DNA from: an uncultured bacterium
GTDB taxonomy: Bacteria; CAIJMQ01
Assembly: GCA_964573245.1 (NCBI GenBank)
Contig: CAZNJA010000004.1
Location: forward strand, 1-43,725
Length of the DNA: 43,725 bases
Reading direction: 5' to 3'
Part shown: positions 21,001 through 30,000 of the stretch, in pieces
How positions within the stretch are numbered: the stretch's first letter is position 1
How the letters are laid out: the number at the start of each line of letters is the position of its first letter
Program-made: the position numbers

Positions 21001-24000
21001 AGGCATTGACGGTATCCCTCATAACAGGATGCTTTACAGTACCTTGCTCGGAAAACCGGATTATGAAATTACTGAAGAGGATATGAAAAAATACAACCTT
21101 GTGCTCATTGGAACTGCGGAACAGAATAGTATCGTTGCGGAAATTGCAGATAAATTGCCTGTGCAGTTGAAGCAAAACAGCATTAAATGTTCCGACGGTA
21201 TTGATTGGGGGATTAGAAATGCAGCTATCGGATTGTCTTTCTATAATCCCAAAGCGCCCAAGCGGCTTATTTTCTGGGTTGCCTGCAATAATCCGGAATT
21301 CTACCAGCCTGAATCAAAAGTCCTGCAAAGGATGGTTTTATCGGATGTTGTCCCGGACATGGTTGTAGCGAGTTTAAAAAACGAAGAAGTTGTTGCTTCA
21401 AGATTTTTTGACAGCCACTGGCAGTGGGAACCCGGTTATGAAAAATCCCGATTTTGTTCGCCTCATATAAGGACAAATAAACAAATGGCAAAAGAAATGG
21501 CAAAGGTTCTCCGAAGAGCTACCGGTAGCGATGTCTCTTTGGTATATATACCGGAAAATCCTGATGATTTGCTGCCCTCTGCGGGTCTGAAGCGAATAGC
21601 CGATTTGACGGCAGATAATTATTATTTGCCTGTTGCCGAAATGACTTTGACAGGTAAAGAATTGCTTGCTTATCAAGAGTGGCTTAAGCAAAATCCTCCC
21701 GAATACGGCGGATGGATTGAATTTTACCCTAAAATAATAAAATTGGCATTTAGAGAAAACGAGCTTTACAAGGTGTCTCTTTATCCGTATGTTCTTTGGG
21801 ATATGGCTGACATCACAATCCAGTATCCTCCTCACGAATACAAGATTACGGATATGCAGGCAATAGATGTTATAGAACAGTATTTCCCAACATCCTTGCC
21901 GACGCATAGAAGAGATTAGAAAATAGGCTTTAGCTTTTCATAAATACCGCTAACAATAAAGCGGTAGTCTGTTTGCTTGTCCTAGCATCTAAAATGGTCG
22001 TAATGATATACTTTCAAAAATGCTAAACGAACTTGAAAAAATTAAGAAAGAATTCTTAGATTCGATTGAAACTATAAAAGACAGTAAAGCTTTAGAAGAG
22101 TTAAGAATTAAATTTTTGGGAAGAAAAAGCGGGCTGACTTCTGTTCTTCGTTCTTTGGGGGCGCTTCTTCAGGAAGAACGCATTTTAGTTGGCCAAAAAG
22201 CAAATGCTCTGCGAAAAGAAATAGAAGAGCGTTTGGAGCAAGTAAAAGGTAATCTTAATCAAAAAAGCGATTCGGAAGCCTCTGTTGACTATACCTTGCC
22301 CGGTTTTCCATTGTCGCTTGGCAAAGAACATCCTATAACCAAGACCATTCAGGAAATAGTAGATATTTTTTCACCGTTAGGATTTCAAGTAGCTACCGGT
22401 CCCGAAATAGAGACCGATTATTATAATTTTGAAGCGCTTAATTTTCCAAAAGACCATCCTGCAAGAGACGAACAGGATTCTTTTCAGATTGACGGCGGAA
22501 AATATTTACTTAGAACCCAGACTTCGCCTGTGCAGATAAGAGTAATGGAAAAGACAAAACCTCCGGTTAGGATAATTTCTCCGGGTGTATGCTATAGAAG
22601 AGATAACCCCGACGCTTCACATTCGCCTATGTTTTATCAGGTGGAAGGTTTAGCTGTTGATACGGATATCCATTTTACGGATTTGAAAGGTGTTTTGTCG
22701 GAATTCGTCCATCAAATGTTTGGCAAAGATGTAAAGATGCGGTTTGTCCCTTCATTTTTCCCGTTTACTGAACCCTCGGCTGAAGTTTCTATTTCCTGTA
22801 TTATCTGCGGCGGGAAAGGTTGCCCTACTTGCGGCAGAAGTGGCTGGCTGGAAGTTTTGGGCGCGGGCATGGTCCATCCGAACGTATTCAAATACGTGAA
22901 TTACGACCCTAAAAAATATACGGGGTTTGCATTTGGTATGGGTGTTGAGAGAATAGCAATGCTGAAATATGGTGTTGGTGATATACGTCTTTTCTATCAA
23001 AATCATATGCAGTTTCTTAATCAGTTTTAAATTTATTTGATAATTAAAACTTTCCTGTTATAATTGCTTAAAAATTAAATATAGAATTTCTTTCGGAGTG
23101 AGGAACACCGTGAAAATCGGTGGCAGTCCCGCTACTGTAAGAGGTGACGAAAGCTCTTAAAGTAAACCACTCTTCAATATAATGTTGGAGGGGAAGGTTA
23201 GAGCAAGTAGAATGAACCCTCAAGCCAGGATACTTGCCGAAAGGAAAAAATCGCAGACTTCTTCGCGGAAAAGAAGGTGTGTTTTTTGTTGCATAAAACC
23301 TCCTCAAGCGAAGTTTGTCCTTTGCGAAACAAATTATAAACGGGGAGGTTATGATGAATCTCAAGGCTTTTAATAATGGTAAATCCTCAATCCCCATTGA
23401 TTTCTTCGAAATCAGAATATGGGGACAAGTCCGCAACCAGAAATCCCCATTGATTTCTTCGAAATCAGAATATGGGGACAAGTCCGCAACCAGAAATGGG
23501 TTTACCCCGTTAGAGATTAAACCAAGAGAGAATTTTACTCCTAAAAGCATTGTAAAAACTGATAAGAAAACAAAGACTTTTGCGATTAGTTACAGAAATG
23601 TCAAAAGACATTTCTTATCTCTAACGGGGTTTACTCTCATTGAGCTTTTAGTTGTTGTGGCTATTATCGGAATAATTTCTGCGATTCTTCTCCCCGCTTT
23701 GCATCAGGCAAAGGAAAAAGCAAGAACAGCCGTATGCAAGAACAATTTAAGACAATTAGTCATGTCTCTTGAACTATATTCTCAATATGAATATGGTTAT
23801 TATCCTCCAACATATTATTATCCTAATTTTATATCAGAGATTGGATGGGATTTTGCAATTGAGTATGATCCAGTTACTTGGGATGTGGCAAGTTGTCAGT
23901 TGGGAATTGTTGGAGAGACCTTACAGGAAGAAAAGATATTCGAATGTCCTTCAAGAATGTCTTTGCCATCAAGCGGCAGGTCCTTTACAGGATATGCTTA

Positions 24001-27000: not shown

Positions 27001-30000
27001 AGAGAACAAATTGATGAATTGGGCAGTTTGGATTTGTATACTTCTATTCCTTGTTTTAATTATCGCTTCTCTTTCGTTATGCATCGGGTCTGGAGGATTT
27101 TATTTTAAGGAAATACTATCAGCTGTTTCAAAAACAGATTCACCTGAATTCAGTATTCTTTTTGATATAAGACTGCCAAGAATAATTCTTGGGTTTGCTG
27201 TCGGGGGGGCATTATCTTTGGCAGGTGTAATCTTGCAGGGAATTTTCAGAAATCCCTTGGTTGAACCCTATACTCTCGGAATTTCCGGCGGAGCTATCTT
27301 GGGAGTGACTTTGAATATAGTTTTCGGGATAGCAAGGGTTTTCGGAGTGATATCAATGCCGATATCGGGTTTTTTGGGTGCCGGCATTGTGATTATCCTG
27401 TTGTATTTTTTGAGCATCAATAAAAGGATACTTAAAATGCATGAACTTCTTTTGTGCGGGGTGATGATAAGTTTTGTTTGTTCTTCGCTCCTTATGCTTT
27501 TGATGGCTATTTCCAAAACGGAAGATTTGCACGGCATTATATTCTGGATGATGGGTTCTTTGGAACAACCGAACACAAGTTTAATATGGATGACAACTCT
27601 TATATCTGTTGCAGGGTTGGTTGCTTCTTATTTTTTCTGTTTCGACCTGAATGCTTTGCTCCTGGGGGAAGAAGAGGCGATCCATTTGGGAGTGAATGTA
27701 GAAAAAACAAAAAGAGCGCTTTTTATAATAGCCGCTGTTCTTACAGGATTTAGCGTTTCCGTTGCCGGAATAATCGGGTTTGTGGGGCTTTTAGTTCCGC
27801 ATCTTGCACGTATATTTATAGGCAACGATTATCGTATTCTCAATATTTCGGCTTTTCTTTTGGGCGGCGCTTTTCTTGTATTTTCAGACACTTTGGCAAG
27901 AGTTGTGATTGCTCCTTTGGAATTGCCCGTGGGAGTAATCACGGGAATATTGGGAGGAACGTTGTTTATCTACGCAGTCCTTAAAAAAAGACTGATTTTC
28001 GGGTAGAGAAAAATGTTAGAAGTAAAAAATCTTACTTGCGGATATGCTTCGGGATTTGCTCTTGAGGATATAAATTTCCGACTAAATGAAAAAGAATTTT
28101 TGGGAATTGTAGGCCCTAACGGTTCCGGAAAAACCACGTTTATCAGAGCGATTACAAAACTTTTACCGATTCGAAAAGGAGAAATTGTTCTCGATGGGAC
28201 GAATATCGACAAAATGAGCTTGAAGGAAATTGCCAGAAAGATAGCCGTCGTTCCGCAAAGCTTTAATATGGAATTCGATATAAGTGTCGAAGAATTCATT
28301 TTCCTTGGTAGGATTCCGCATAAGGGCGCTTTTCAGTTTGTTGAGGACAAAAAAGACATAGAAATGGTTACAAACGCGATGGAGTTGACAGAAATATTGG
28401 AACTGAAAGATAGAACGGTCAACAGCCTTAGCGGAGGGGAGATTCAACGCGTTGCGATAGCGCGCGCTTTGGTTCAAGAACCGCAGCTTCTCTTATTAGA
28501 CGAGCCCACCTCCCATTTGGATATAGGGCATCAAATTAAAATTTTAGATTTATTGAGCAATTTGAACAAAGAAAAAATGTTGACAATTATTTCTATTTTT
28601 CACGACCTTAATCTTGCGAGCGAATATTGCAACAAGTTACTGCTTTTAAAGGAAGGCAGGACTTATTCTGTAGGCAAACCCGAAGAAGTATTAACCTACC
28701 AAAACTTAGAACAAGTATACAGAACACCGGTTTTAGTCCAAAAAAACACTGTGTCTGGCAAACCCTATGTGTTAGTTGTCCCTCATCCCGAGGAATATTC
28801 CTGCCGATTTTAAGCGGAGAAAATAATTTCCCCATTCTGTTGAGTTCTTAACCTATTTTGTATCTGTATATTGTGTTAATCACTTCCAAAATCCTTTTTA
28901 CCTAAGGTAATAAAAAATGTTTACACTTGACAGATTAAAGAGATATTCTATAATTGTGGTGTGGAGTGGGGAAAAGTGGGTAATAATGCTAAAAGACTTT
29001 ATGGGGAATACTGGCATACTCTTGACGAGAAGAATCGTCTTTTTATTCCTGCCAAACTTAGAAAAGCTTTTAAAAAAGGGGAAAAGCTTGTTCTATCAAG
29101 AGGGTTGGATGGCTGCCTTTTCCTTTTCCCTCAAGACGAATGGGAAAAGTTAGAAGACAAAGCCAAATCCTTACCTATTACTGCCCGGGATGCTCGCGCA
29201 TTTACACGCCACCTATTTTCTGGCGCTTCCTTATCCGTTGTGGATTCTCAAGGGAGAATTCCCTTTCCCCCTTCACTGAAGGAATATGCTCGAATCGTTA
29301 AAGAAGTAGTGATTATCGGAGTTTCCAGCAGAATAGAAATATGGGCGAAGCAAAGATGGGAAAATTATTCTAAAAATGCGGAAAATAAAGTCGAGGACAT
29401 CGCCGATAAGTTGGACGAATTCCGAATTTAAATTATGGCTGTTCGGTTGTAGGTTTAGGTTATTTTGAAAATGAACAAATTATTAATAAAGACCGAAAAG
29501 GAAAAACCGAGAACCGAGAGAATAGTTCATATCCCTGTCCTTCTTAAAGAAGTTTTACAATATTTGAATTTAAAGGAGGGCGGAATTTACATAGATTGCA
29601 CGGTGGGCGAAGGCGGACATTCCGAACAGATTCTTAAAAACATTGGAAAAAAAGGTTTTCTTGTTGGGTTGGATAAGGACGGCGAATTATTAGATGTAGC
29701 CGAAAAAAGACTTGCTAAAATAAGCAGAAATTTTGCGTTGTTCAATGATGATTTTTTAAACCTCTCTTTTTGCCTTGAAACATTGAAAATTAAAAAAGCA
29801 AACGGCATTTTGTTTGACTTCGGAATATCTTCTTTTCAACTCGAAAATTCTTCAAGGGGCTTTTCTTTTAAAAACAACGGCCCGTTGGATATGAGATTTG
29901 ACATATCATCTTTACTGACTTGCGAACGATTGGTAAACGAAGCCAATTATGAGGAACTTGTTGAAATTTTGAAAAACTTCGGAGAAGAGAGACGCGCATC

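Follow-up and report, generated by a model that had tools for sequence, protein, structure and literature searches.

The locus raises the question of why a type IV pilin-like gene should directly follow a cobalamin riboswitch. It lies in a window of 43,725 nucleotides, a contig from an uncultured bacterium (genome G000, 1.46 Mb, 93% complete; family f1), for which a survey had proposed that the pilin-like gene stands in the place of BtuB. Our literature search found no report linking a cobalamin riboswitch with a pilin-like gene. The pairing of the two across phyla, described below, points to a candidate pilin-based route of vitamin B12 capture.

The riboswitch and its operon

The aptamer was matched over positions 1-189 of the 189 positions of the RF00174 model, with a score well clear of the gathering score of 31.5 bits (Table 1). 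As the survey had found, it was the sole RF00174 match in the genome, and our search returned the same score. Downstream of the aptamer, a terminator-like hairpin may form part of the expression platform, and its segment was nearly invariant in an alignment of five genomes. The hairpin was not called by a terminator scan because it contains too few G-C pairs. An anti-SD (23299-23303) and SD (23344-23348) pair ahead of the ATGATG start is kept in G000-G003. Because the MFE fold of the platform segment did not differ significantly from shuffled sequences (z -1.33), we regard the pairing of these two elements as putative.

The operon comprises, in order, the pilin-like ORF, a homocysteine S-methyltransferase module, a pterin-binding module, Peripla_BP_2, FecCD and ABC_tran. 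By domain matches, this is the gene content described earlier, namely a pilin-like gene, split MetH modules and BtuFCD. The homocysteine S-methyltransferase module falls under all equivalog cut-offs, and the BtuF-like protein scored 78 bits for the BtuF equivalog, under the cut-off of 234. Judged by alignment, the gene of the latter likely starts at the ATG at 26133. No further promoter-like site was found between the one 5' of the aptamer and mraZ; the next precedes mraZ itself and, judging from its sequence, marks the end of the operon.

Table 1. Features of the riboswitch-led operon, in contig coordinates
Feature	Position	Strand	Evidence
Sigma-70-like promoter (TTGATA, 16-nt spacer, TATAAT, with TG), immediately 5' of aptamer	23037..23064	+	Consensus scan only, 11/12 matches
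Cobalamin riboswitch aptamer (RF00174)	23077..23255	+	81.6 bits, E 1e-18, full-length model
Terminator-like hairpin (CTTCTT/AAGAAG), then T-run; putative expression platform part	23258..23288	+	Read from sequence
Anti-SD CCTCC and SD GGAGG	23299..23348	+	Read from sequence
Prepilin-like DUF1559/H-X9-DG gene, 329 aa	23351..24340	+	PF07596, PF07963, TIGR02532 above cut-offs
Exact 53-nt tandem duplication within leader-coding part	23389..23494	+	Sequence repeat analysis
Perfect 14-nt inverted repeat (arms 23504-23517 and 23617-23630)	23504..23630	+	Repeat analysis
H-X9-DG motif (12 residues)	24209..24244	+	Read from translation
C-terminal tail (12 residues), signature of riboswitch-linked subfamily	24302..24337	+	Tail-motif count
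Homocysteine S-methyltransferase module (split MetH)	24407..25303	+	PF02574, 226 bits
Pterin-binding methyl-THF:corrinoid methyltransferase-like module	25322..26140	+	PF00809; NF005719 289 bits, cut-off 259
BtuF-like periplasmic binding protein	26058..26981	+	PF01497
BtuC-like permease (FecCD)	26987..28006	+	PF01032, 296.6 bits
BtuD-like ABC ATPase	28013..28813	+	PF00005, 121 bits
Perfect sigma-70-like promoter ahead of mraZ (start 28961)	28927..28954	+	12/12 consensus

The pilin-like protein

The ORF matched PF07596 with 31.1 bits (cut-off 23.3). Its leader of 93 residues (23351-23629, up to the G|F site, with the mature part starting at 23630) greatly exceeds the usual length of prepilin leaders. 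The tandem duplication in the leader-coding part has no other copy in the genome, and short contigs of runs X1-X4 contain its junction with no mismatch. A degenerate copy of the pilin N-terminus (GFTPLEI vs GFTLIEL) sits between the arms of the inverted repeat. The earlier worry that the long leader may impair the protein is weakened by the preserved frame, by other orthologues that are also long-leadered, and by a dN/dS of 0.13-0.19 against the orthologues. With dN/dS at 0.12-0.25 overall, similar to that of BtuF, the gene is functional and under purifying selection. Across the 32 orthologues aligned, the prepilin cleavage motif and its E5 are conserved without exception.

A predicted model of the protein (pLDDT 83.8, pTM 0.80) gave the type IV pilin PilA4 as the best full-domain match (Z 5.9), followed by EpsG (Z 4.5 over 94 residues), with ComP also among the matches (Z 4.0). 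These values are close to the survey's Z of 6.5 and pLDDT of 89.2. All matches of the fold search were pilins or pseudopilins, with modest Z values, and known B12 binders were absent, in agreement with the survey's own caveat. The N-terminal 60 residues matched GspG best (TIGR01710, E 2.4e-10), and the protein was rejected as a member of the GspG equivalog (40.6 bits, cut-off 88.85). TIGR04294 was not reported for it at E <= 0.001 and was above cut-off in relatives at loci L355 and L308.

The tail motif, which was defined after members had been seen, occurred in 23 of 34 riboswitch-linked proteins vs 1 of 146 background family members, and in 11/18 linked proteins that were collected once the motif was known. 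H-X9-DG was present in 17/20 linked proteins and, family-wide, in 78 of the 146 background rows. Within G000, which has about 11 prepilin-motif genes in total, tail and H-X9-DG occur together only in the riboswitch-linked gene. These motifs mark the linked proteins as a distinct tail-bearing DUF1559/H-X9-DG subfamily.

Conservation in the family

In all five f1 genomes a pilin-like gene (of type a, of type b, or one of each) comes after a riboswitch, which reproduces the cases known from the survey (G001, G004 and two in G002) and extends them to the whole family. G001, G002 and G004 share the order riboswitch, orthologue, MetH modules, BtuFCD and mraZ, and the second riboswitch of G002 precedes a pilin-like paralogue and MetE. 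G003, previously listed without a riboswitch, does carry an aptamer (35 bits), whose 5' end is cut by the end of contig C46 and which is immediately followed by a pilin-like paralogue with the same operon. The sister-family genome G006 has tandem riboswitches followed by a receptor with Plug and barrel, ExbB, ExbD and TonB. We recovered the Plug gene there, in 1/9 genomes of the phylum examined. The claim that family f1 has no TonB-dependent receptor held, with neither Plug nor the barrel PF00593 in any of its five genomes; each of them has one TonB_C protein, which corrects the first picture.

The diderm f1 cells have LptE, BamD and secretins (3-5 matches per genome), and prepilin peptidase was found in 3/5 genomes, which measure 1.3-1.5 Mb. 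CbiC was found in none of the five; B12-binding proteins were found in all of them, and B12-dependent enzymes are present, which speaks for a need to acquire the vitamin.

Recurrence in other phyla

Riboswitch-linked pilin-like genes were found in at least three other phyla; all counts given here span related genomes. We scanned 160 generic DUF1559 loci with nhmmer and passed 15 to Rfam, which confirmed 8 as having a same-strand cobalamin-class aptamer upstream. The linked genes sometimes stand alone, as in the monocistronic loci L086 and L306-L308, and sometimes occur with a BtuF-like gene (L160) or with genes for DUF4465 B12-binding proteins (L355 and L367, where the DUF4465 gene comes first). 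In G041, G042 and G043 the pilin-linked aptamer is the sole RF00174 match per genome. Among the best 60 riboswitch loci from two phyla, 11 start with a gene for a TonB-dependent receptor, 7 with one for a DUF4465 protein, 2 with one for a BtuF-like protein and 2 with one for a DUF1559 protein; in the phylum of G043, DUF4465 comes first at 7/30 loci. DUF4465 is a proven B12 binder according to excerpts of PMC13398666. First place behind the riboswitch is thus typical of genes for uptake.

For the phylum of G041, up to 8 kb downstream of each riboswitch was examined for a prepilin-type gene on the same strand, and one was present at 11/28 loci in receptor-less genomes vs 0/20 in receptor-bearing genomes (Fisher p 0.0012, with kin that are not independent). 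The other 17 of the 28 include several truncated by contig ends. Plug was found in none of G041-G045 (0/5). The phylum of G043 shows no such split, with a pilin-like gene behind the riboswitch in 5/13 cases from receptor-less and 5/21 cases from receptor-bearing genomes, both rates being far above chance. In three locus sets, 0.25, 0.47 and 0.09 strict-motif matches were expected and 5 (of 7 positive loci), 3 and 1 were observed. The only strict-motif gene of G272 is the riboswitch-linked one, and large expansions of prepilin-motif genes are nearly confined to receptor-less genomes. The placement "in the place of BtuB" therefore stands in part: the regulatory link, its conservation and the lack of a TonB-dependent receptor in f1, together with the split in the phylum of G041, speak for it, but it is not general. 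Because receptor-bearing genomes in the phylum of G043 carry the linked gene as often, the pilin-like protein is not simply a BtuB substitute.

Proposed role in B12 acquisition

We tentatively propose, at a little under an even chance, that the pilin-like protein belongs to the cell envelope, is induced by B12 starvation and serves corrinoid acquisition, a role that comparative sequence evidence from other phyla favours. Against this role count the fold matches limited to pilins and pseudopilins, the linked genes of receptor-bearing genomes in the phylum of G043, the 17 loci without such a gene in receptor-less genomes of the phylum of G041, the TonB_C protein kept by f1, the long leader, the family-wide spread of H-X9-DG and a platform fold that does not stand out from shuffled sequences. 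Judging from its class and platform sequence, the riboswitch would be an OFF switch, so that scarce adenosylcobalamin would allow transcription and translation of the operon. The products induced would be the pilin-like protein first, then the B12-dependent methionine synthase in its split form and BtuFCD, the importer of the inner membrane. Prepilin peptidase would cleave the pilin-like protein, and a pilus or pseudopilus machine would assemble it and may present it through a secretin. Once presented, the protein would capture corrinoids at the outer membrane or outside it, and these would be brought to BtuF. It would thereby do the job of BtuB, or of BtuG/BtuH-type surface binders, in receptor-less diderms.

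The gene could instead encode a pilus subunit or tip that attaches B12-starved cells to B12-producing partners or particles and carries no vitamin. The pilin fold suits this idea, the small genomes and many secretins of f1 fit a partner-dependent life style, and the dS of the gene between G001 and G002 (1.24 vs 0.30-0.32 for its neighbours, about fourfold) is of the kind common for exposed variable surface proteins. We nevertheless consider it unlikely, since the gene is found repeatedly with BtuF-like or DUF4465 genes, or alone behind the aptamer, in free-living large-genome phyla, and since tail and head motifs conserved across phyla argue for a conserved ligand and against variable host surfaces. 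No more probable is a non-binding pseudopilin with which a type II secretion-like machine exports or displays corrinoid scavengers (PEP-CTERM/DUF4465). The GspG-like N-terminus and the EpsG match agree with it, as do riboswitch-led strings in other phyla where genes for secreted PEP-CTERM proteins or DUF4465 precede the pilin-like gene. However, the operons of the window's family and several other loci contain no secreted partner, the GspG equivalog score is low, and a single pseudopilin dedicated to one cargo would be unusual.

A role confined to the inner membrane, as an anchored corrinoid binder or chaperone for BtuF, cleaved or uncleaved, seems distinctly improbable. Although the gene shares an operon with BtuFCD, its long hydrophobic N-terminal helix could anchor the protein and its unusual leader may hinder normal pilin processing, such a helper would leave the outer-membrane passage of a 1.3-kDa ligand unexplained in receptor-less genomes, would duplicate an existing BtuF-type binding protein, and fits poorly with the invariant cleavage motif. 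It is more doubtful still that this is an ordinary pilin-family gene, placed by chance behind the riboswitch and ahead of the B12 genes or sharing their regulation for no B12-specific reason. DUF1559-type genes are indeed numerous in many of these genomes, and elsewhere in G000 they adjoin unrelated metabolic genes. This reading is already disfavoured by an arrangement kept throughout the family despite paralogue turnover, by frequencies far exceeding chance expectation, by the monocistronic loci, and by the tail motif specific to linked genes; with so few prepilin-motif genes in G000, chance placement there is unlikely.

Comparison with known systems

Like BtuB in the BtuB-TonB system, the proposed capture protein has the same regulator and is encoded first after the aptamer, with BtuFCD downstream or alongside, an arrangement that the receptor has in G006. 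In contrast to BtuB, it lacks Plug and barrel domains and is a pilin-fold protein of 237 aa that carries a class III signal peptide. Alone it cannot form a membrane channel, so any passage would need another pore, e.g., a secretin. GspG is its best N-terminal match, with EpsG as the second fold match, but its head is about twice as large, with DUF1559 motifs, H-X9-DG and the tail, and its gene lies outside any gsp operon.

In excerpts of PMC5394234, pili-like fibres of planctomycetal crateriform structures bind dextran, and fibres of the PVC group are suggested to bind substrate before uptake, as proposed here. The substrate there is a polysaccharide, however, and these excerpts name no fibre protein and make no link to DUF1559, B12 or riboswitches; the words "pilin", "TonB" and "secretin" do not occur in the text. 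According to excerpts of PMC13398666, PMC10404256, PMC8941943 and PMC6143338, BtuG, BtuH/DUF4465 and BtuJ of Bacteroides are accessory envelope proteins encoded at B12 loci under riboswitch control, and they capture the vitamin before it passes to the transporter. DUF4465 likewise heads riboswitch loci, with the pilin-like gene next in L355 and L367. Such binders have beta-propeller or jelly-roll folds, are lipoproteins or PEP-CTERM proteins, and partner BtuB, whereas the protein of the window combines a pilin fold with a prepilin signal, showed no likeness of fold to them, and belongs to a family without BtuB.

The pilin fold with an elaborated head is shared with ComP, the DNA-binding minor pilin of Neisseria competence. 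There the pilin binds its cargo outside, and retraction brings the cargo in through the secretin. Unlike ComP, our candidate would carry a vitamin instead of DNA and has no sequence relation to ComP past the N-terminal helix, and our analysis linked no retraction ATPase to its gene. By analogy, the same logic of binding and retraction may apply to the pilin-like protein of the window.

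The riboswitch operon

The cobalamin aptamer was matched by RF00174 over model positions 1-189 of 189, with 81.6 bits against a gathering score of 31.5. An RF00174 search of the whole genome (G000; 1.46 Mb, 93% complete) returned this single match, in agreement with the survey's finding of a sole cobalamin riboswitch. Because the next strong promoter-like site lies ahead of mraZ, the riboswitch unit was taken to end before it. Downstream of the prepilin-like gene, the operon encodes in order a homocysteine S-methyltransferase module, a pterin module, a BtuF-like protein, a FecCD permease and an ABC ATPase. 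The pterin module resembles methyl-THF:corrinoid methyltransferases (NF005719, 289 bits against a cut-off of 259). With the homocysteine module it would form part of a split MetH; a B12-binding protein of about 230 aa is encoded elsewhere (on contig C40 in G000) in all five genomes of the window's family, f1. The three parts of a BtuFCD-type importer are all present in the operon (PF01497, 86 bits; PF01032, 297 bits; PF00005, 121 bits). The BtuF equivalog model NF002894 gave 78 bits with the BtuF-like protein, under its cut-off of 234, so it is the riboswitch context that points to B12 as the importer's substrate.

A hairpin with a T-run and an anti-SD/SD pair can be read between the aptamer and the start codon, and an alignment showed these elements and the start to be near-invariant in four of the five related genomes. 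The terminator scan of the window did not call the hairpin, and the platform segment folded no better than its shuffles (z -1.33). The proposed OFF logic, by which cobalamin would shut expression, therefore rests on the riboswitch class. Elsewhere in the window, the 1018-aa protein encoded upstream of pheS combines an N-terminal CBM_4_9 with a prolyl-oligopeptidase/alpha-beta-hydrolase part and is unrelated to the riboswitch operon.

Positions of features in the window, on other contigs of G000 and in comparison loci (L)
Feature	Sequence	Position	Strand	Basis
1018-aa protein	window	18863-21919		
Strong sigma-70-like promoter, 5' of aptamer	window	23037-23064	+	consensus scan
Riboswitch unit	window	23077-28813	+	next strong promoter-like site
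Cobalamin aptamer	window	23077-23255	+	RF00174
Hairpin with T-run, 3' of aptamer	window	23258-23288	+	read from sequence
Anti-SD CCTCC	window	23299	+	read from sequence
SD GGAGG	window	23344	+	read from sequence
ATGATG start of pilin-like gene	window	23351	+	read from sequence
53-nt tandem duplication in leader-coding part	window	23389-23494		
Further part of leader-coding hot spot	window	23498-23647		
H-X9-DG motif	window	24209-24244		by eye and regular expression
Strong sigma-70-like promoter, ahead of mraZ	window	28927-28954	+	consensus scan
STN secretin with ECF and anti-sigma factors	G000 C1 (L070)	88-1497 and 2157-3235		
TonB_C gene	G000 C1 (L070)	7825-8601		
Tandem pair of DUF1559-type genes	G000 C9	8449-10150		
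Tandem pair of DUF1559-type genes	G000 C25	2944-4541		
Peptidase_A24 with A24_N	G000 C77	3415-4218		
Second riboswitch locus of G002	C33 (L034)	473-5990		
Tandem cobalamin aptamers	L038 (G006)	4157-4713		
Secreted family without Pfam match	L158	2485-3435		
Secreted family without Pfam match	L076	4194-5024		
Secreted family without Pfam match	L077	511-1329		
Secreted family without Pfam match	L161	246-1076		
Secreted family without Pfam match	L159	1587-3485		
Secreted family without Pfam match	L151	782-2125		
Secreted family without Pfam match	L248, L251, L269			

The pilin-like protein

Read from the ATG at 23351, the pilin-like protein has 329 residues. PF07596 (DUF1559) matched with 31.1 bits against 23.3, covering profile positions 2-102 of 268 only. 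PF07963 (24.1 against a cut-off of 21.2) and TIGR02532 (26.2 against 16.3) recognised a class III signal, G|F-T-L-I-E with its Glu at +5, and the hydrophobic helix behind it; none of the five residues from F to E varies across 32 aligned orthologues. The H-X9-DG model TIGR04294 did not match the window's protein at E <= 0.001; two relatives, from loci L355 and L308, scored above its cut-off. The protein ends in a 12-residue C-terminal tail of the subfamily type.

The AlphaFold model (pLDDT 83.8, pTM 0.80) consists of a 50-residue N-terminal helix (residues 14-64) packed on a beta-sheet head. Full-domain structural matches were type IV pilins and pseudopilins only, with modest Z scores: PilA4 (Z 5.9 over 123 residues), EpsG (Z 4.5), PilE1, ComP and PilV. 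The protein is not an equivalog of GspG (TIGR01710, 40.6 bits against 88.85), and the match is confined to the N-terminal 60 residues. Neither a PDB sequence search, Foldseek against the PDB (E <= 0.001), a wide structural search nor Pfam revealed a known B12-binding fold (BtuF, BtuG, BtuH/DUF4465 or the B12-binding Rossmann fold), as the survey had also noted, and binding is not thereby excluded. A co-fold of the mature part of BtuF with the pilin-like head scored 0.01; run without controls, it counts neither for nor against binding.

When the usual prepilin leader is taken as under about 30 residues, the leader up to the cleavage site is long in G000 (93 aa) and G002 (about 86 aa) and short in G001 (18 aa) and G004 (6 aa). 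The leader-coding part of the window's gene contains an exact 53-nt tandem duplication, which is found nowhere else in the genome. The pilin N-terminus is also repeated there as a degenerate copy, with the arms of a perfect 14-nt inverted repeat on either side. Four runs (X1-X4) yielded short contigs that match the duplication junction without mismatch, which rules out an error confined to this assembly. We rejected the 38-nt hairpin unit of the 53-nt repeat as a dispersed repeat, since its two places in the genome are both in this gene. At the same place, the in-frame insertion in the G002 gene (L035) is a different one, about 80 residues (about 240 nt) long and with internal repeats of its own; the leader-coding part is a hot spot for in-frame insertions.

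The survey had raised the concern that the long leader may impair the protein. The frame is open, however, and the mature part shows a dN/dS of 0.13-0.19 between G000 and its orthologues, close to the values for BtuF and the MetH module and with dS near saturation; long leaders also occur in several more distant orthologues. Given this purifying selection and the long leaders elsewhere, the gene is not read as decaying, and with the junction seen in four runs the pseudogene reading was rejected. Between G001 and G002 (L033, L035), dS of the pilin-like gene was 1.24, about four times that of the adjacent MetH and BtuF genes (0.30-0.32), which suggests allele replacement by recombination.

Family f1 and its sister family

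Nine genomes of the window's phylum were sampled. Close homologues are labelled Candidatus Ratteibacteria or Omnitrophica in the source records, and the pilin-like protein has more than 100 close orthologue clusters. The order riboswitch, pilin-like gene, MetH modules, BtuFCD and mraZ was found in all five f1 genomes (G000-G004), so the claim that the pilin-like gene always follows the riboswitch in this family holds. Two types of pilin-like gene occupy this place: type a in G000, G002 and G004, types a and b in tandem in G001, and type b alone in G003. G003, which had been reported to have no riboswitch, in fact carries a 5'-truncated aptamer (35 bits) at a contig end, ahead of the type b gene. 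A second, stronger riboswitch in G002 (119 bits; L034) heads a third pilin-like paralogue and then MetE; beyond MetE lie ThyX, a truncated type b pilin-like gene and an IS200-type transposase.

The sister family was said to have a TonB-dependent receptor behind its riboswitches, and in G006 tandem riboswitches do head a receptor with Plug and barrel domains, followed by ExbB, ExbD and TonB. Tandem cobalamin aptamers ahead of one gene also occur in L247, L265, L268 and L336. In G005, a riboswitch precedes a phosphoglycerate-mutase-family ORF at a contig end, which may be CobC.

The reported lack of a TonB-dependent receptor in family f1 was borne out, as Plug and TonB-dependent barrel domains were each found in 0/5 genomes; CbiC was likewise found in none. 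All five genomes encode B12-binding domain proteins (including the conserved protein of about 230 aa), a single TonB_C protein each, and three to five secretin matches, five of them in G000. A prepilin peptidase is present in three of the five, and G000 has a Peptidase_A24 protein with A24_N. LptE and BamD are present in G000. The presence of LptE, BamD and B12-binding proteins, together with the lack of CbiC, Plug and barrel, marks family f1 as diderm corrinoid importers without the usual receptor.

About 11 genes in G000 carry the prepilin motif, and H-X9-DG and the tail are combined in the riboswitch-linked one only. Other DUF1559-type genes of this genome (L072, L073) are tandem pairs with no tail motif, and their neighbours are unrelated metabolic genes (gatB; prephenate dehydrogenase and a DeoC-type aldolase). 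The TonB_C gene lies between asd and a pfkB kinase, away from ExbB/ExbD, and the same gene is present in G001-G004. On the same contig of G000, a divergent ECF sigma factor and a zf-HC2 anti-sigma factor are encoded next to a small secretin (469 aa) that has an STN domain, a layout that recalls FecA/FecI/FecR signalling but with a secretin. In four genomes, the TonB gene has a secretin of about this size 5-6 kb away.

Riboswitch-linked pilin-like genes in other phyla

As a background set we used 160 generic DUF1559-type loci from metagenomes and genomes of other phyla; the query patterns were generic (prepilin helix, HFRH..AN), so these are not orthologues. An nhmmer search with an aptamer profile flagged ten of them, and 15 loci were then run against Rfam. 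A cobalamin-class aptamer upstream on the same strand was confirmed in eight of the 15 (RF00174 in L086, L174, L106, L158, L159 and L151; RF01689 in L160 and L076), and these eight are the loci with the best full-length query matches. The pilin-like gene stands alone behind the riboswitch in L086, is followed by a small ORF and a BtuF-like protein in L160, and precedes a large membrane protein in L174. In L158, L159, L076 and L151, the pilin-like gene is preceded or followed by genes for secreted proteins, some of them PEP-CTERM proteins, that belong to no known family. At least two secreted families without a Pfam match, several members with PEP-CTERM anchors, recur in riboswitch operons of other phyla, either beside the pilin-like gene or first; such proteins are candidates for further B12-capture proteins.

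In G041, G042 and G043, the riboswitch of the pilin-like locus is the only RF00174 match of the genome, and a Plug search of G041-G045 gave no positive genome. Among complete genomes, all larger-genome relatives, the linked gene was found at two loci in G115 and one each in G088 and G046. The two loci of G115 (L306 and L307 on contig C1) are separate, and this complete 7.4-Mb genome has 107 strict-motif genes.

Two sequence features accompany the riboswitch. H-X9-DG is present in 17 of the 20 prepilin-type proteins found behind riboswitches in our scans, and the tail (D/N)(D/S/N)x(L/A)(Y/F)D in 23 of 34 riboswitch-linked proteins compared with 1 of 146 background family members. Of the 18 proteins collected once the motif was known, 11 had the tail, and L380 provides one more example. 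In a FastTree phylogeny with 168 family members, 8 changes of the riboswitch label are needed, compared with 15.5 when shuffled (0/500 shuffles as low), with starred branches forcing at least two changes, deep branches weak and near-copies adding to the clustering. A single origin of the riboswitch-linked genes is neither shown nor excluded by this tree.

RF00174 matched in 130 of 151 genomes sampled from the phylum of G041, mostly in single copy, and in 55 of 101 from the phylum of G043. We took as first gene, by our own rule, the longest ORF whose start lies no more than 450 nt from the aptamer, for the 30 best loci per phylum (n = 60). It encodes a TonB-dependent receptor in 11 of the 60, DUF4465 in seven, a repeat or propeller protein in seven, NrdD in five, BtuF-like, DUF1559 and HlyD-type proteins in two each, and a ribonucleotide reductase, MetE and an SHMT-like protein in one each; 21 have no Pfam match. 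DUF4465 has been shown by experiment to bind B12 (PMC13398666). These counts, with DUF4465 as a B12 binder, indicate that envelope uptake proteins often occupy the slot behind the riboswitch. A prepilin motif within 1.5 kb of the aptamer was found in 2/30 and 1/30 of the best loci of the two phyla, so the prepilin link is a minority arrangement in both, and the idea that it is the default there was rejected. At L272 and L273, which have the strongest cobalamin riboswitch of G259 and G280 (both without a Plug-domain receptor), the first gene is unusual in encoding an HlyD-type membrane-fusion protein.

Relation to TonB-dependent receptors

Plug domains were found in 106 of 151 genomes of the phylum of G041 and in 65 of 101 of the phylum of G043. 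We scanned for a same-strand prepilin-type gene up to 8 kb downstream of the riboswitch. The receptor-less set of the phylum of G041 comprised 28 loci in 27 of the 45 receptor-less genomes. These 27 are all the receptor-less genomes with a listed riboswitch place, leaving aside the three known beforehand and two where the place is at a contig end. A prepilin-type gene was found at 11 of these 28 loci and at 0 of 20 receptor-bearing loci (Fisher p 0.0012, with kin not independent). With G041, G142 and G163 added, 13 of the 30 examined receptor-less genomes were positive. The split was not replicated in the phylum of G043, with 5/13 receptor-less and 5/21 receptor-bearing loci positive (p 0.45). 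In the receptor-bearing loci L355 and L367, the pilin-like gene comes after DUF4465; in the other receptor-bearing positives, it comes after FG-GAP or unknown proteins. Strict complementarity with TonB-dependent receptors was therefore rejected as a general rule: the survey's phrase "in the place of BtuB" does not extend to the phylum of G043.

Both linkage rates in the phylum of G043 are far above chance. Strict-motif matches in three locus sets numbered 5, 3 and 1, compared with 0.25, 0.47 and 0.09 expected from genome-wide counts, and in G272 the riboswitch-linked gene is the sole strict-motif gene in 3.6 Mb. We defined a large expansion as at least 15 copies of the strict prepilin motif (FTLIELLV). 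Such expansions occur in 21/36 receptor-less and 3/65 receptor-bearing genomes sampled from the phylum of G043 (median copies 47 and 2), and in 10/45 and 1/106 from the phylum of G041 (median copies 3 and 1); related genomes are not independent, and p-values for expansion overstate the effect.

Discussion

The genes known to be under repression by cobalamin riboswitches serve to acquire or make corrinoids or else encode B12-independent isozymes, and our first-gene survey is consistent with this. Since a pilin-like protein cannot be such an isozyme, the economical reading is that it serves corrinoid acquisition. B12 starvation would induce a pilin or pseudopilin subunit, the subunit would capture corrinoids, and a secretin-based machine would bring the captured corrinoids to BtuF. 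We infer the binding, cleavage, location and route of the protein from comparative evidence.

Rival readings are that the protein may help cells adhere to B12 producers, may act as a pseudopilin in the service of secreted scavengers, may be a periplasmic helper or may be encoded by a passenger gene. Of these four alternatives, only that of a passenger gene is clearly disfavoured.

To our knowledge, DUF1559/H-X9-DG proteins are among the largest uncharacterised families of PVC-group bacteria, and we know of no function for them. A bolder proposal, which we hold to be rather improbable, is that these prepilin-like proteins as a class are ligand-catching subunits of a pilus/secretin import route replacing TonB-dependent transport. 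The tail-bearing, riboswitch-linked subfamily would then be the corrinoid-specific member and the first with an identifiable ligand. Such a class-wide role would explain why expansions are almost confined to Plug-less genomes.

The corrinoid-acquisition reading addresses the question of how a 1.3-kDa vitamin crosses the outer membrane in diderms without TonB-dependent receptors. An RNA switch directly before one recognisable subfamily provides the first concrete, testable ligand hypothesis for DUF1559/H-X9-DG. If the hypothesis is true, there would be a pilin-based branch of vitamin uptake, and B12 auxotrophy and exchange would be read differently from PVC-group and candidate-phylum genomes. 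The link in the complete genomes G115, G088 and G046 makes it testable if any of them is a cultured strain; G115, if cultured, would be a good test organism. Outside subscription journals and supplements, our literature search found no paper in which a pilin-like or DUF1559 gene is tied to a cobalamin riboswitch; DUF1559 itself was mentioned in four of the papers listed.

The pilin-like protein can be likened to the TonB-dependent receptor BtuB by role only, as it has neither PF07715 (Plug) nor PF00593 (barrel). The nearest published idea concerns planctomycetal crateriform structures, whose pili-like fibres are proposed to bind dextran ahead of uptake (PMC5394234). For the proposed subunit, the nearest working analogy would be a ligand-binding minor pilin of an uptake pilus.
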